The notes under the pieces: generated by a model | Told to the model about the DNA's origin: nothing | Databases searched by the model: none | What the model saw: only the letters and a program-made list of their open reading frames with translations | Shown: piece after piece, positions 6,977 to 39,755 of the stretch | Layout of the letters: each line of letters begins with the position of its first letter | Position numbering within the stretch: the first letter of the stretch is position 1 | NCBI GenBank assembly: GCA_963765575.1 | Contig: CAVXWZ010000008.1 | Span: 224,001 to 288,000 of the forward strand | DNA: 64,000 nucleotides | Reading direction: 5' to 3' | Source: an uncultured cyanobacterium | Lineage (GTDB): Bacteria; Cyanobacteriota; Cyanobacteriia; PCC-6307; Cyanobiaceae | Translations under genes and position numbers: made by a program

Positions 6977-7296
6977 GTGCGCTCTTTACTGCGCCTGGTG
7001 ATCGGGGAGTCGGAGCGATTCCCCGCCCTGGCCATGGTCTTGGTGGAGCAACTGCAGCGCTCCGGTATGGCTCCATGCGTGCGCCGGTTCAGCGCCGGCT
7101 CCGCTGGGGTCGCCGAGATCCGCGCCCGGGGGTGTTCATGGGCGCGCTCATGCACGGGATCCTGATGGCAGCGGTGGTGCCTGGCCACGATCTGGCGCCA
7201 GGGGACCGGGATCGCTTCGCCGCCATGCCCGTCCACCTGGTGCGTGCGGCGGCGGCGGATTCGGGCTGCCGCCCCCACCCACCAGACAGCGGCTGA
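6977..7296 (+). pseudogene. TetR/AcrR-family regulator C-terminal remnant
   Basis: LLRLVIGESERFPALA motif, frameshift in G-run about 7128-7132 to VFMGALMH; no HTH domain upstream. Confidence 0.65.
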
Positions 7297-8335
7297 CAAA
7301 CGGGGAGGTCATCGCCCGCAGCAGGGCGCTGTAGTTGAGGCTGAAACGCTGCTCCTGGCCCACCACCAGCGGCTCGCCGCAGCTTTCCACCACCAGGTGA
7401 TCGCTGGACGATCCCACCAGGGCTAGCCCCGCTGGGGGGCCCAGGCCGCCAGGATCGGTGTCCTGTTCCCCGAGGGCCAGCAGGGCCCGCTGGCGGACCC
7501 CCCGCTCAGGGCCGATGGCGGTTTCGGCAAAGCTGGTGAGGCCGCGCTCGCCCCAGGGTCGGGTGGGTTTGGGCTTGGCCTCGATGACTTCGGCCACCAG
7601 GGTGAAGGCATCGGTGAACAGGCCCGGCAGGGCCGTGCGGCCCAGGGGCTCGCGGCCCAGCAGCAGCGCTTCCCCCAGCCGCAGGTGGTTGATGCGCTGG
7701 GGCACCCCGCCCGCCGCCAGCCAGGGGAGGTTGGCGGAATTCCCGCCCGACACGATCGCCAGCTCGATGCCGAAGCGACCCTCCAGGGCGGTGGCCAGAT
7801 CCGAGAGCTCCGCCATGTTGGTGGCATCCGGTTTGACGCCGTGCTGGCAGCCGAGATTGGCGCCGATCCCCATCAACTCCAGGGAGGGCAGGCCCAGGGT
7901 GAGCGCCGCCACCGCTTCCAGATCCGCCGCCAGGATGCCCTCACGCAGGTCCCCCAACTCCACCATCAGCACCACGCCGTGGCGAAGGCCCTGGTGGGCA
8001 GCTGCCGCCGCCAGGGCTTCGAGCAGCAGCGGTTCGCTGTTGCAGCTGATCGCGGCGCCGGCCACCACCCGATCCACCTGGCTGAGCATCGGCGTGCGGA
8101 TCAACAGCTTCGGCACGGCCACGCCGGCCTGGGCGAGCGCATCAAGCGTCTCGATGCGGGAGTCGCCGATCGAACCCACCCCCGCCGCCACCCAGGTGTG
8201 CGCGATCGCCGGCAGGCCGAGCACCGCCTTGCTCACGCCGCTGATGGCGATGCCCTGCCGCCCCAGCTGCTCCACCAGGGTGCGGGCGTTGTGGTGCAGG
8301 CGGTCGAGATCGATCTCGAGCCGCGGGGCGCTCAC
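7148..8335 (-). CDS. alanine/ornithine racemase family PLP-dependent enzyme
   Basis: ISGVSKAVLG (PLP Lys), IGDSRI, MVELGDLREG, VSGGNS, INHLRLGEA, GSSSDHL; low-complexity C-terminal run-on. Confidence 0.9.
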   Translation of the reverse strand: MSAPRLEIDLDRLHHNARTLVEQLGRQGIAISGVSKAVLGLPAIAHTWVAAGVGSIGDSRIETLDALAQAGVAVPKLLIRTPMLSQVDRVVAGAAISCNSEPLLLEALAAAAAHQGLRHGVVLMVELGDLREGILAADLEAVAALTLGLPSLELMGIGANLGCQHGVKPDATNMAELSDLATALEGRFGIELAIVSGGNSANLPWLAAGGVPQRINHLRLGEALLLGREPLGRTALPGLFTDAFTLVAEVIEAKPKPTRPWGERGLTSFAETAIGPERGVRQRALLALGEQDTDPGGLGPPAGLALVGSSSDHLVVESCGEPLVVGQEQRFSLNYSALLRAMTSPFVSRCLVGGGGSPNPPPPHAPGGRAWRRSDPGPLAPDRGQAPPLPSGSRA

Positions 8336-9495
8336 GCCGGGGCCCGTTGGCTGGCGCCGAGCTCGGGGAAGGCGCGCACCACCATCTGCACCAGCCGCTC
8401 GGCTGGACGGCTGAGGGCATCGCTCACCGGAATGCCCAGCTCCGCCTGATAGAGGGCGATGGCGGTGGAGAGCTCGTCGTCGTCCATGCCCTCGTGGTTG
8501 ATCGTGAGGCCGATCACCCGCGTGGGCGCGAAGGCCTCGATCAGCTTGATTTCGCTGGCCGGGCTGGGCATGGCCACCGCGGGAATGTCGCAGAGGCGCT
8601 GGCGTTTCGGGGCGTGCTGCAGGATCACCGCCTGGGGCTGGCCGCCCCGCAGGATGAAGGCGGAGGAGAGGTAGGCGGGATGGCTGAGGGCCCCCTGGCC
8701 CTCGATCACGATCACTTCGGGGCGCTCGCTCTCGTAGGCCTCCACCACGGCGGCCTCCACCTCACCCGAGCAGAACTGTGACGGGATCGCGTCGAGGGCC
8801 ATGCCGTAGCGGCCCCCCTGGATCAACCCCGTCTGGCCCGTGCTCACCAGCAGGGAGGGGATGCCGTGGTCGTTGAGCGCCTTCACCAGCAGGGTGGCGG
8901 TGGTGCGTTTGCCGATGGCGCCGTCGGTGCCGAGCACGGCGATGCGACGGCAGTGGGCCCGGGCGATCGAGCCGTCGAACAGCCGCAGATCCTTGAGGGC
9001 CGGCGGCCGGCGCACGTCGCGAATGGATACGCCATGGCGCTGGGCGGCGGCCACGAACGCCGGGTCGTCGAGCAGAAACTCCCGCAGGCCGTTCACCAGG
9101 TTGAGGCCGGCGCCGATCGCCGCCAGCAACAGGCTGCGATCGGCTGGGCTGAATAAGCCGTCGGCCGGTGCCACGCCGTAGATCAGGGTCGTCAGCGTGG
9201 CTCCGCCGACGGCGAGGGCGGCCTTCAGGTTGGCCACGATCGGGATGCCGTTGGCTGTCCCATCGAGCACCAGCCCGGCATCCCGGCCAGCGCAGTGGCT
9301 GTCGATCACCGCAGTGATCTGGAAGGCCTCGCAGTGGCGCACCAGGCCATGGGCCGTCTTGCCGTCCAGGCCCTCAAATTGCCCTTCGCAATAGACCACA
9401 GCGGCCGGTCGCGGTGCCGGCGGCGGCAGCGCGGTGGCGCTGGGGTACAAACGCCAGGGCGCCTGCAGGCCGGGGGCCTGGGAAAGGGATGTCAA
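8332..9495 (-). CDS. DUF1611 family P-loop protein (DgcN-like)
   Basis: GKTAHGLVRH, VLGTDGAIGKRTT, STGQTG, IEGQGALSHPAY; TTG start with GAGGA SD; 4-nt overlap with racemase. Confidence 0.9.
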   Translation of the reverse strand: MTSLSQAPGLQAPWRLYPSATALPPPAPRPAAVVYCEGQFEGLDGKTAHGLVRHCEAFQITAVIDSHCAGRDAGLVLDGTANGIPIVANLKAALAVGGATLTTLIYGVAPADGLFSPADRSLLLAAIGAGLNLVNGLREFLLDDPAFVAAAQRHGVSIRDVRRPPALKDLRLFDGSIARAHCRRIAVLGTDGAIGKRTTATLLVKALNDHGIPSLLVSTGQTGLIQGGRYGMALDAIPSQFCSGEVEAAVVEAYESERPEVIVIEGQGALSHPAYLSSAFILRGGQPQAVILQHAPKRQRLCDIPAVAMPSPASEIKLIEAFAPTRVIGLTINHEGMDDDELSTAIALYQAELGIPVSDALSRPAERLVQMVVRAFPELGASQRAPA

Positions 9496-9599
9496 CGGAA
9501 GCCGTTCCTCGTCGGGAGCTCAGAGGAGGCGTCTGCGTGGCCTGCAACGGCTCCAAGCCGTGCGGGGGGACCAGAAGACTCAGCCAAGTTGGGTAACTG
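9496..9599 (-). promoter_or_regulatory. candidate structured 5' leader with SD-sequestering hairpin
   Basis: Three adjacent stems by manual pairing (9581-9599, 9531-9579, 9501-9530); last pairs UCCUC with GAGGA. Confidence 0.45.
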
Positions 9600-9606
9600 T
9601 TGTTAC
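9593..9606. promoter_or_regulatory. NtcA-type box overlapping putative -10 of DUF1611 operon
   Basis: GTA-ACTGTTGT-TAC, extended dyad GTAAC-N4-GTTAC; minus-strand TAGAGT at 9605-9610. Confidence 0.6.
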
Positions 9607-9677
9607 TCTACGGTGCCCTGAGAGCTGGTGGTGGGGCGGCCTCGATGGCCGGTTGCCTCGGCCGTGCGAGGCCGCAC

Positions 9678-10041
9678 TCAGGGCTCGAAGGGCAGGGTGA
9701 TCGGAGTGCCGACCCGGCCCCTGCAGACCACAACGATCTGCGCCGCTTCAGGGCCGAGGCTGGTGCCCTGGTGGGGTGTGTGGACCAGTTCGATCAGGGC
9801 ATCGCCCGCCTCCAGGGTGATGCTCTCGCCATTCAGGGAGTTCACCTGCAGTCGGCCCTGCAGCAGCACGCCCGCGTTCACCACGGGGTGAACATGGAGG
9901 GGCAGGGTGACGCCGGCGGGAACGGTGATCCGCAGAACGGTGACCTCGGGTTGCCCAGGGCCCGCGGCTGGGTGCTGGAACCAGCGCCATGGCGATGGCC
10001 GCGAGCAGCGCTCCTGCCTTGCGGACGACGGGATCAGGCAT
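9678..10041 (-). pseudogene. cupin domain protein with frameshifting internal deletion
   Basis: Signal-peptide frame (ATG 10041) out of frame with PGQPEVTVLRITVPAGVTLPLHVHPVVNAGVLLQG...ELVHTPH. Confidence 0.75.
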
Positions 10042-10248
10042 GGGGGAACGCCTCACGGGTCAGGGCCTGAACTGTTGGAGCAGGGTCTCGGTGCGCGCCA
10101 TCTCGCCGCCCATCACGACGGTGCTGTAGCCGCTGCCCGGGATCATCGGAGCAGCGGCAGGCGGCGATCTCTGCCCCTGAGCCATGTCTGAGGCTTGCTG
10201 CCTGGCCGACGGATCGGAGCAGATTGAGCGTCAGGGCCTCGGCCGGCA

Positions 10249-11889
10249 TCAACGGTCGCCATTGAGCCGCTGACTCAAGGCCTCCATGGCGTTGGCAACA
10301 GTCGCGAAATTGCCCATGCCAGACCGGAGACCGAATCGGCTCAGTTCCTTCTCGATGGCACTGGATGTGGTCACCAGTGCCGTGTGGATCCCGCGCTGGT
10401 GGAGCAGGTCGCGCAGTTCCAGCAAGGTCTTGGCCGCTGAGTCGTCCAGATCATCCACACCGGAGGCATCAATGACCAGTCCTCGGATCTGCTCGCCGGG
10501 CTGGCTGGTGAGACCCAGCACCTCCTGGGTGAAGCGGTTGGCATTGGCATCGAAGAGGTTGGCCTCGAAGCGGTAGGCCAGGATCCCGGGTGCGGCCAGG
10601 ATTCCTGGGCCAACCGGCACGGTGCGGAGGTCGGTGCCCTCGCTGTTGAGCGTCCACAGGTAGGTGCGGGGGCGGACGGTGTGTCGCACCTGTTCGATCA
10701 GCGAAAGCACCACGGCGAGCACGAATTCATTGCGCTGCAGGTGCCAGAGTTCGGCGAGGCCATGCCAGTCGATCAGCTGGATGCCGATCAGAAACACGAT
10801 CGTCGACAGCAGCGCCGCAGGCAGAAGCGCCAATGGTCGCGTGAAGAACAGCGGCACCAGCAGCACGACCATGGCCGCCGTGAGATGGGCGAGCTGGCTG
10901 CGACCGCCCGCGGCATCCACCATTTCTGTCTTGGTGGGACTGCCGTTCACCACGAACGTGCCGCTGAGCCCGGCCGCGAGGTTGGCGCCGGCCAGCCCCA
11001 GCAGATCCACATTGTCCAGATTCCTTTCGCGGTAGCGCTGGGCGTAGGCCCGGGTCGTGGCGGAGCTCTGGGCCAGGATCACCACGAAGCAGGACGCAGC
11101 GCTGATCAGCACCGCGTTCCACTGGGACGCGCCGACCGAAGGAATCGCCAGCTTGGGCAGTCCTCCGGGAACACTCCCCACCACATCCAAGCCCCTAGCG
11201 GAAAAATCCAGCAGCCAGCTCGCCAGGATCGAGCCGGCCACGGCAATCAGAGCACCCGGAAGCCGTCGGTTCAGGCGGAAGCAGACCACGATCACGCCCA
11301 CCACCCCCAAGGCCACCAGCAGGTGATCAAGGCGGCTTTGGCCGATCCGGGCCAGCGCACGACACCACCTGCTGTAGAGCACCGTTGCAATGCTTCTGCA
11401 GCCCGAGCAGGCCCGCCAGTTCCCCTGATGCCACCTGGATTCCGATTCCGGAAAGCAGGCCGATCAGGGCACTTCGAGATAAAAAATCCGCCAGGAATCC
11501 AAGCCGCAATCCAGCCGCTAGCACCAGCATCCCGCTAGCACCAGCATCACGGTGACAGCCAGGGCAACCGCCATCGTGAGGCTGAGGTAGGCCTGCGACC
11601 CTGGAACCGCCGCCCCCGACAGCGTGGCCACCAGGATGGCTGCGGTGGCGGAGTCGGCAGCCACCACCAGGTGCCGTGAGGCGCCGATGAAGGCAAAGGC
11701 CAGCATCGGCAGCAGCATCGTGTAGAGGCCCGTGGCCACCGGGGTCTGGGAGATGCGGGTGTATCCCATCACCTCGGGAATGGCCAGTGCTGCCAAGGTG
11801 AGACCGGCGACCACGTCGGTGCTCAGCTGGTCATGGCGCCGTGGCAGTAGTCCAGTCGCTCGTGGAACAAAGCGGTGCAGAAATGTCAA
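10249..11889 (-). pseudogene. SulP family anion transporter with STAS domain, frameshifted
   Basis: DVVAGLTLAALAIPEVMGY, GTFVVNGSPTKT, STAS LVIDASGVDDLD; three frames; 17-bp tandem duplication at 11515-11548. Confidence 0.88.
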
Positions 11890-12045: not shown

Positions 12046-13534
12046 TCAGGCCCCGATCTCCAGCACTCCCATCATCCCCAGCTCCTCGTGATCGAGCACA
12101 TGGCAGTGGTAGACCGTGCGGCCGGGAAAATTGCGGAAGCGGGTGCGTAGCCGCACGCTTTCGCCCGGCCGCACCAGCACCACATCCTTCCAGGCGCGGT
12201 AGGGCTCGGGGCGTCCATCGCGGCTGATCACCTGGAAAGGATTGGTGTGGATGTGGAAGGGGTGGTCCATTACACCTGTGTTGCGCACCAGCCAGTCCTC
12301 GGTGTCGCCCAGGCGCACGCGGGTGTCGACGCGGTGGTGCTCATAGGCCTTGCCGTTGATCAGAAACACCATCCCCTGGCCAGGGGCATGCCTGGCCAGG
12401 GGCCATGCCGTGGTTGAGCACGAAGCGGCGGCTGATCGAGGGTTCCGGCAGGGGCTCCACAACGCCCAGCCGGCCGGGTAAGGGCACGGGTTCCACCGAT
12501 CCGGCGTAGCGCAGGGTGGCCAGAACAACGGGCGCGGCCGCTTCTGAGCTGGCGGCCCTGGCGGGAGCCTCGCTTCCCATCCCCATCCCCATCCCCCTGC
12601 CCATGCCCATACCCATGCCTCGTCCCATGCCCATGCCGCCCCTGGTGCGGCTGTAGGGCAGGTCCAGAAGTCGGTAGCTGCCGGGGGGCTGGTTGCCGCG
12701 CACGAGGACCTCGGCTCGCTCCCCCGGGGCCAGCAGCAGCTCCGGGAGCTGCACCGGTGCCTCCAGGGCGCCGCCGTCGCTGGCGATCAGGTGCAGGGCA
12801 TGACCCTCCAGGGCAAGCCGCCAGACGCGGGCATTGGAGGCGTTCAGCAGGCGCAGCCGCAGCAGCCCCCCGGCGGCCACGCTGAGGTTGGGGTTGCGTT
12901 GACCGTTGACTGTGAGCACGCTGCCCTCGCGGCCCAGCGCCCGGGCCATGCCGGCAGATCCCACTCCAGTGGCAGCGGCGAGGTCTTTGAGCACCAGCAG
13001 CTGCTCGGCAGCGGCGGCGACCTCCGGGATCCGATCCAGGGCTCCCCGCACCACGATGGCGCCGCCGAGGCCGCCGAACACCTGATCGCTGACGTTGCCG
13101 TGGTGGTGGGGGTGGTAGTAGAAGGTGCCGGCCGGGTGATCGTCGGGCAGGGTGAAGCGGTAGGTCTGCGACGCTCCCGGCGGCACGCTCAGAAACACGT
13201 TGTCGGCATTGCCGCTGGGGGAGATGTGCAGGCCGTGGAAGTGCAGGTTGGTGGCGGAGTCGAGGCGGTTGTGCAAGCGAATCTGCACCGCATCACCGGC
13301 TTCCAGCTCCAGTGGCGGGCCCGGCAGCTGGCCGTTGTAGGTGAGGCCGTGGCTGGGGCCGCCCGGAATCGAGAGCCTGGTGCGCTCGGCCACCAGATCG
13401 AGATCCAGGCCCCCGTTTCCGGCCGAGACGGGTGGTTGCTTGGCCGCTGTGGCGGTCTGGCGCGCGATCAGCGCCGATCCCACCGTTCCTCCGGCCAGCA
13501 CGAGGAAGGAGCGGCGGCTGAGCGGCTGGGCCAT
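12046..13534 (-). pseudogene. Tat-exported multicopper oxidase (CueO-like, Met-rich insert), frameshifted
   Basis: SRRSFL Tat motif, HFHG, YYHPHHH, GM-rich insert; HPFHIH and HCHVLDHEELGMM in second frame; 16-bp duplication near 12375-12407. Confidence 0.9.
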
Positions 13535-39712: not shown

Positions 39713-39755
39713 ACGGTACGGACCGGTGAGGGGACAACCTTGTAGCGCTCGCTAC
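39713..39755 (-). promoter_or_regulatory. NtcA-activated promoter of glnA
   Basis: GTA-N8-TAC at 39742-39755, 23 nt from -10 TACCGT (39713-39718). Confidence 0.88.

Follow-up and report, generated by a model that had tools for sequence, protein, structure and literature searches.

A conserved leader RNA 5' of the DUF1611-racemase gene pair is a candidate translational riboswitch

The DNA analysed here (referred to as the window) is a 64,000-nt stretch of contig CAVXWZ010000008.1 (positions 224,001 to 288,000, forward strand) from assembly GCA_963765575.1, an uncultured cyanobacterium of the family Cyanobiaceae. Its minus strand carries a DUF1611 operon preceded by a structured leader. The first gene (8332..9495) encodes a 387-aa distant DgcN-like protein (PF07755 and PF17396) and starts with UUG at 9495, where the database gene call also begins; the protein scored 155.8 bits against the DgcN model NF041892, below its cut-off of 480. 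The start of the second gene (7148..8335, minus strand) overlaps the DUF1611 stop, and its product is a PLP alanine/ornithine-racemase-family protein (PF01168) that reached 309.5 bits against the Orr model NF040742 (cut-off 480). Upstream of the leader is a Cupin_2 gene (9678-10100, minus strand) whose 5' part is seemingly out of frame, followed by a SulP/STAS transporter (10249-11889, minus strand) and a multicopper oxidase (12046-13534, minus strand), each apparently split into two ORFs. The latter two form a cluster of possibly broken genes beside the cassette.

All leader elements are on the minus strand unless noted. A putative -10 box, TAGAGT (9605..9610), predicts a transcription start near 9598, and a strandless GTA-N8-TAC palindrome of the NtcA type (9593..9606) overlaps both the -10 box and the start, which is a repressor position. 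The 5' core, here CUUGGCUGAGUC (9577..9588; consensus CUYAG-nGn-RGAC), provides the 5' strands of helices P1 and P2 and carries U where 73 of 79 leaders have G. The inner arm P2-P3-P4 follows (9531..9579); its P2 is GUCU/AGAC vs. GACC/GGUC in the closest relatives (L002-L003), so that two pairs are altered on both strands. The 3' core GAC-GCC-UCC-UCUGAG (9519..9533) includes a conserved GCC bulge (9530-9528) and the anti-Shine-Dalgarno (anti-SD) sequence UCCUC (9527-9523). P1 joins the two cores (9588-9584 with 9523-9519) and is the alternative to pairing of the anti-SD with the Shine-Dalgarno (SD) sequence GAGGA (9506..9510), its partner in the full-length fold. A weak terminator-like hairpin is also present on the plus strand at 9578-9594.

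The initial annotation had folded nearly the whole leader into three abutting stems, with UCCUC covering a GAGGA SD located 10 nt before the UUG start. The predicted minimum-energy fold of 9599-9493 (minus strand) reproduced all three stems and this SD pairing. The annotation itself cautioned that chance hairpins are common in GC-rich DNA. Here 135 of 200 shuffled sequences were as stable as this fold (z = +0.53), and in a separate comparison 117 of 200 folded as well (z = +0.26). Because shuffled sequences fold as well, folding alone is no evidence; cyanobacterial leaders in general fold near chance (median z -0.55). Comparison with homologues separated the three stems. Homologues retain the long middle stem, corresponding to P2-P4, as well as the pairing of UCCUC with GAGGA. 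The GCC/GGC extension of the third stem is confined to L001-L003, which are this copy and the two leaders most closely related to it. The register of the first stem (CAGUUA/UGGCUG; 9581..9599) is not kept either, with 53% paired vs. 52-55% in slid controls; this 5' hairpin is in the minimum-energy fold of an RNA starting at 9599 and absent if the RNA starts at 9598. It buries part of the 5' core, and other type-B leaders do so with a 5' hairpin in a different register. P1 and the GTA-N8-TAC box had been missed.

Homologous leaders were collected in two overlapping sets. A search of 201 family genomes gave a match in 41, and the 30 best loci were taken; a species collection supplied the best 80 of at least 223 confirmed loci. 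Two loci came without upstream DNA, and 108 were analysed. Among these best matches, the full motif was found at 72 of 108 DUF1611 loci (67 distinct leaders), a truncated form at 29 and none at 7; in five of these seven the DUF1611 start codon coincides with the end of another ORF, which encodes peptidase S51 in the single case tested. The motif opens with the 5' core CUYAG-nGn-RGAC, followed by the inner arm (∼7-50 nt across homologues) and the 3' core GUC-GCC-UCC-UCUGAG; a spacer then leads to the SD, with which the motif ends. Its hosts are Cyanobiaceae, many Actinomycetota, Nitrospinota and Vibrio plasmids. Among eight plasmid homologues, a diverged motif was present in 5/5 from Vibrio and absent in 3/3 from Rhodobacterales. 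Further sampling recovered the motif in 2/2 loci from the phylum of L068, and nine more from the actinobacterial phylum comprised five clear motifs, three degenerate ones and one locus without it. More distant cyanobacterial homologues (42-49% identity) had the motif in 0/10 cases, no viral relatives were found, and plasmids gave no DNA-level match.

Some of these leaders deserve separate mention. In a Cyanobium clade, 24 distinct leaders carry a 15-nt stub of the motif, made of the outer P1 pairs and GCC with the inner arm deleted, at 17-18 nt past the -10 box (L006, L008, L011-L017, L020, L032-L038, L044, L045, L051-L056, L062); the stub is either a minimal functional form or a relic. Five loci labelled non-cyanobacterial (L034, L039, L048, L050, L062) fall inside the Cyanobiaceae DUF1611 clade and are probably mislabelled assemblies. 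In the Vibrio leaders L265-L268 a U-rich run comes after the 5' hairpin, an arrangement like that of an intrinsic terminator placed very close to the start.

Pairing was then assessed across the aligned leaders (those from Vibrio were anchored by hand; MAFFT misregisters their 1-nt shorter 3' core). P1, P2 and P3 were 86.1% paired vs. 82.0% in shuffled controls, a level reached by 0 of 500 shuffles, and 35-50% when the strands were slid. The central P1 pairs hold in 78/79, 78/79 and 75/78 leaders. One P1 pair is U-G in 42 leaders, C-G in 31 and U-A in 5 (the U-A in Vibrio), and one P3 pair is G-C in 32 and C-G in 26 of 62. Cognate halves of the inner arm pair better than swapped halves in 82 of 118 comparisons; the P1 and P2 arms do no better with their own partner than with a swapped one (24/55), and their variation is mostly wobble. 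Type-A actinobacterial leaders have a separate 5' hairpin (76/78 paired vs. 60.7 expected at one position; own partner better in 84/98), and the core is enclosed by a stem of 4-5 pairs in 37/46 type-B vs. 27/98 type-A leaders. RNAalifold recovered the 5' hairpin and P1 unaided from 27 actinobacterial leaders and gave no consensus structure for all 67 distinct leaders. A tree-aware G-test on four sequence-only alignments detected no covarying base pair at E < 0.05. One column pair at E = 0.012 was non-pairing and was rejected as an artefact of staggered SD alignment. The power of such tests is low because the core is conserved in sequence. The comparison of homologous leaders proposed in the initial annotation gave a mixed answer: conservation was found and counts of covariation on the named structures were positive, but the tree-aware test was negative. 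We regard the proposed structure, as judged from these alignments, as probable.

A second type of conservation concerns bases that pairing does not explain, as is typical of riboswitches. The first G and the last C of the bulge are each present in 78/79 leaders and C102 in 79/79, although the bulge G can pair in a second register in some actinobacteria. The CUG of the 3' core is retained in 39/40 leaders collected protein-first whose SD side cannot pair with it (the automatic anchoring behind this count, and behind the anti-SD probabilities, energy gaps and partner swaps, is shifted in a few leaders with a 1-nt deletion). A coding explanation for the constant 3' core is hardly credible. The core would be the end of a leader peptide, Arg-Arg-Leu-Leu-stop, acting as an attenuator, and many leaders do read R-L-L-stop there in one frame, with the stop present in 56/67; but an in-frame start exists in 19/67 only and none in the window, and homologues differ in the frame in which the 5' core is read.

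We examined predicted pairing in full-length RNA and in RNA that ends at the 3' core. In the full-length RNA, the anti-SD of this copy pairs downstream with a probability of 0.96 (the mean is 0.83 over 106 leaders from outside cyanobacteria and 0.32 over 32 from within), and P1 has a probability of 0.00-0.04. When the RNA ends at the 3' core, P1 of this copy reaches 0.65 and is part of both the minimum-energy and centroid structures. The mean P1 probability of such nascent RNA is 0.79 outside cyanobacteria (28/34 above 0.5) and 0.39 inside (12/32), compared with 0.24 and 0.15, respectively, when the 5' core is shuffled. The P1 state lies above the OFF state by a median of 4.0 kcal/mol in cyanobacteria and 8.0 kcal/mol in the others, and by 3.5 kcal/mol here. 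Many cyanobacterial leaders have lost the SD hairpin. In cyanobacteria, the real core makes freeing the SD no cheaper than a shuffled core does (12/31); the count for the others is 68/106. In Vibrio the SD hairpin is built from other sequence and still overlaps P1, and the two states are 0-2.5 kcal/mol apart. The predicted expression platform is therefore mutually exclusive with the putative aptamer, though some cyanobacterial leaders have no such platform. In type-B leaders the 5' core is in the loop of the 5' hairpin, so that P1 might take the form of a pseudoknot.

These predictions suggest the following order of events. In the nascent RNA the 5' core would pair with the 3' core to form P1, closing P2-P4 around the conserved GCC bulge; the emerging SD region would then strip the 3' strand off P1, leaving the anti-SD:SD hairpin as the lower-energy OFF state. 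A small molecule bound at the P1/P2 junction might hold P1 in place, free the SD and turn translation ON. Judging from the alignments and folding models, the leader is very probably a functional, cis-acting translational switch of the ON type located close to the transcription start. That a metabolite drives the switch by holding it on has, in our estimate, slightly less than an even chance.

The same two states could also run without a ligand. Nascent P1 would briefly expose the SD before the SD hairpin shuts it, limiting translation to newly made, transcription-coupled mRNA, as the MS2 maturation leader and hok mRNA act as kinetic timers. The dominance of P1 in nascent RNA, its absence at equilibrium and the gap of 4-8 kcal/mol in most leaders fit such a timer, which we think unlikely though a serious competitor: it needs pairing only, yet the unpaired bulge bases are near-invariant (78/79), and they survive in the Vibrio leaders, whose SD hairpin differs in sequence. 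Temperature, which the initial annotation had offered as a possible signal, fares worse. An RNA thermometer melting the anti-SD:SD hairpin would account for the sequestered SD of the equilibrium fold, but it requires neither the conserved competing helix nor the invariant unpaired bases of the bulge, no Rfam thermometer matches the leader, and the genes are not heat-shock or virulence genes; we consider it very unlikely. The near-invariant bulge bases favour a small molecule as the effector, and the suggestion of amino-acid sensing made in the same annotation remains plausible.

The motif is closely tied to one gene class. A motif-first pattern search of metagenomes gave 83 matches, of which 73 were directly before DUF1611 and 4 were cut by contig ends; the remaining 6 lack the flanking helices. 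Scans with the model R1, in which 25-31 candidates were scored per genome, returned 18 matches of at least 41 bits over 151 family genomes, all at DUF1611 (16 by position and 2 checked), one new strong match, also at DUF1611, over 151 actinobacterial genomes, and, over 272 more genomes, 18 new matches in two actinobacterial groups, 17 of which were at DUF1611. As for the motif at other genes, weak R1 matches (30.5 bits or less) lie in coding frames, as judged from four of the six in one of these scans. The Vibrio forms of the motif score 12-17 bits with R1, and because of such low scores and the few candidates per genome, diverged copies at other genes could escape. The leader thus has the location of a riboswitch, 5' of one gene class, in sense orientation and after a promoter with a predicted start.

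The racemase gene follows DUF1611 in 97 of 108 loci. A scan of 132 of the 169 neighbouring ORFs at 44 loci showed no third gene that recurs; the neighbours include scattered genes for peptidase S51, M19 dipeptidase, class IV aminotransferase, glutaminase and AzlC. The pair is a mobile two-gene cassette without constant neighbours, observed in several hosts beside tRNA genes (L081 5236-5752; L067 5127-5200) or on plasmids (H2-H9). Two Synechococcus loci have a cobalamin riboswitch downstream of the gene pair (L026 3773-3945; L065 5463-5636). Since the motif crossed phyla together with the gene, its effector is expected to be universal or cassette-encoded, and a host-specific protein effector is disfavoured. 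A protein could still tip the folds if it were DUF1611 itself, acting in autoregulation, or another conserved factor. The motif tracks DUF1611 rather than the racemase (five motif-bearing loci have no racemase) and travels across phyla, as this explanation would have it. We nevertheless rate it as quite improbable: the DUF1611 domains are enzymatic (Rossmann-like and P-loop), a domain search found no RNA-binding domain in the protein, and the geometry predicts an ON switch, which is unusual for autoregulation.

At the promoter, a sigma-70 scan that requires a -35 element found nothing in front of the leader. A TAnnnT box is located 20-24 nt before the 5' core in 34/35 type-B leaders, 28-34 nt before it in 31/31 type-A leaders and 22-28 nt before it in five Vibrio leaders (a single candidate in 49/66 leaders, the remainder picked by hand). 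The fixed distance between the -10 box and the 5' core is compatible with another account, in which the leader mostly hides the SD constitutively, a promoter-proximal DNA signal was inherited along with the mobile cassette, and P1 is a by-product of the SD-like 5' core. The lack of significant covariation, the presence of the cassette on plasmids and near tRNAs, and decay of the motif in several lineages point the same way. This account is about as improbable as a protein-binding site in our judgement, given that the motif core is retained at 50-60% protein identity where the flanks cannot be aligned, that 7-50 nt containing nested stems separate the two halves of the core, and that CUG is kept (39/40) where the SD side cannot pair with it. 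We return to the two-state switch as the preferred reading.

A further layer of control is suggested by the GTA-N8-TAC palindrome. According to PMC6212724 this sequence is the NtcA consensus, and sites at the -10 box repress. The genome has ntcA, and at the sequence level the palindrome of this copy overlaps the -10 box and start as in an NtcA-repressed promoter. Two matches occur in the window vs. 0.16 expected, and 36 in the 2.7-Mb genome. The other match of the window (39742-39755) is ∼75 nt upstream of the glnA start. Among cyanobacterial homologues the palindrome covers the -10 box in 12/56, representing about three lineages; among non-cyanobacterial homologues it was found in 1/34, at another position. 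Two other strong sites of the genome are not at nitrogen genes, for which reason the box, and with it the repression of the leader promoter by NtcA, is suggestive only. If the box is real, the DUF1611 operon would be on when nitrogen is plentiful. When placed on the protein tree, the box characterises the clade in which both the SD hairpin and the inner arm degenerate and the truncated form arises, and the RNA switch may be in the course of replacement by NtcA control there. The copy in the window keeps both the box and the SD hairpin. NtcA repression would have been added at the promoter in one cyanobacterial lineage, with the same two-layer logic as in gifB.

Taken together, the motif is a real cis-regulatory RNA family as far as comparative sequence and folding models can tell, with a predicted two-state translational design, and it is a good, unvalidated riboswitch candidate. 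The proposal of the initial annotation that an unrecognised cis-regulatory RNA acts on translation holds up: a motif from four phyla is strictly 5' of DUF1611, sequesters the SD, has a competing helix and matches no Rfam family. Its ligand would most likely be an amino or acyl-amino acid, either as the substrate of the DgcN-like/racemase pair or as a signal of nitrogen sufficiency, although association with a single gene offers no clue to the ligand. The most specific version is a long shot: the leader would represent a new class of riboswitch for a D-amino or N-acetyl-amino acid, would have moved among four phyla on a mobile two-gene cassette and would be giving way to NtcA control in one picocyanobacterial lineage. 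A new class of riboswitch is a rare find, and each one reveals a metabolite whose level is monitored by the cell; here the ligand would point to the substrate of the DUF1611-racemase pair and would bear on bacterial sensing of D-amino acids or nitrogen status. More than 150 members of the family have been sampled; the smallest natural form is ∼75 nt long, and in some variants the two states are nearly isoenergetic.

The RNA family is apparently undescribed. The Rfam check advised in the initial annotation yielded no family for the leader: at the gathering threshold of Rfam 15 there was no leader match in the window, in 20 homologous loci or in 6 divergent loci, and when the limit was relaxed to E = 10 for a Cellulomonas leader and a Vibrio leader, sub-threshold, unrelated families alone appeared. 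A likeness to T-box and ZTP RNAs (the words UGGU and CGCC) was discarded, as neither gave an Rfam match and both words are either variable or paired within the leader itself. In the open literature, searches on DUF1611/COG3367, racemase RNA motifs and NtcA found nothing relevant. No candidate in PMC8632094 (main text plus one supplement) or PMC11109978 (main text) names DUF1611 or a racemase, and eight supplements of PMC2864571 contain no relevant term.

Among known RNAs, SAM-III/SMK and SAM-VI are translational riboswitches with SD sequestration, a small helix and a conserved junction. The leader, compared with them via Rfam only, shares the small helix, the conserved junction and the mutually exclusive SD pairing; it differs in matching neither Rfam model, in a predicted ligand state that frees the SD, and in genes that are not SAM-related. 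The orphan "strong riboswitch candidates" of PMC11109978 and PMC8632094 belong to the same class of evidence, with a conserved 5'-UTR motif with an SD platform at one gene; the Streptomyces dauA and livJ motifs differ from the leader in being located before STAS and LIVBP genes. The DgcN-DgcA pathway of D-glutamate likewise combines a DUF1611 protein with a racemase (PMC12363236, PMC10845958), whereas the partner here is of the PLP alanine-racemase family, and the available text of both papers mentions no RNA control.

The glutamine riboswitches provide a parallel in overall logic. The genome has its own glutamine-II copy (RF01704, 48.6 bits; G000:C11:790919-790997, L243), with a GTA-N8-TAC sequence 8 nt before its -10-like box. 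According to PMC6212724, glutamine riboswitches of the gifB type are likewise 5' leaders with an RBS-freeing ON mechanism (postulated there), and their promoters likewise have an NtcA box in the repressor position. The initial annotation was right that the leader does not resemble them: it matches neither RF01739 nor RF01704, precedes other genes, and occurs in Actinomycetota, Nitrospinota and Vibrio as well as in cyanobacteria.
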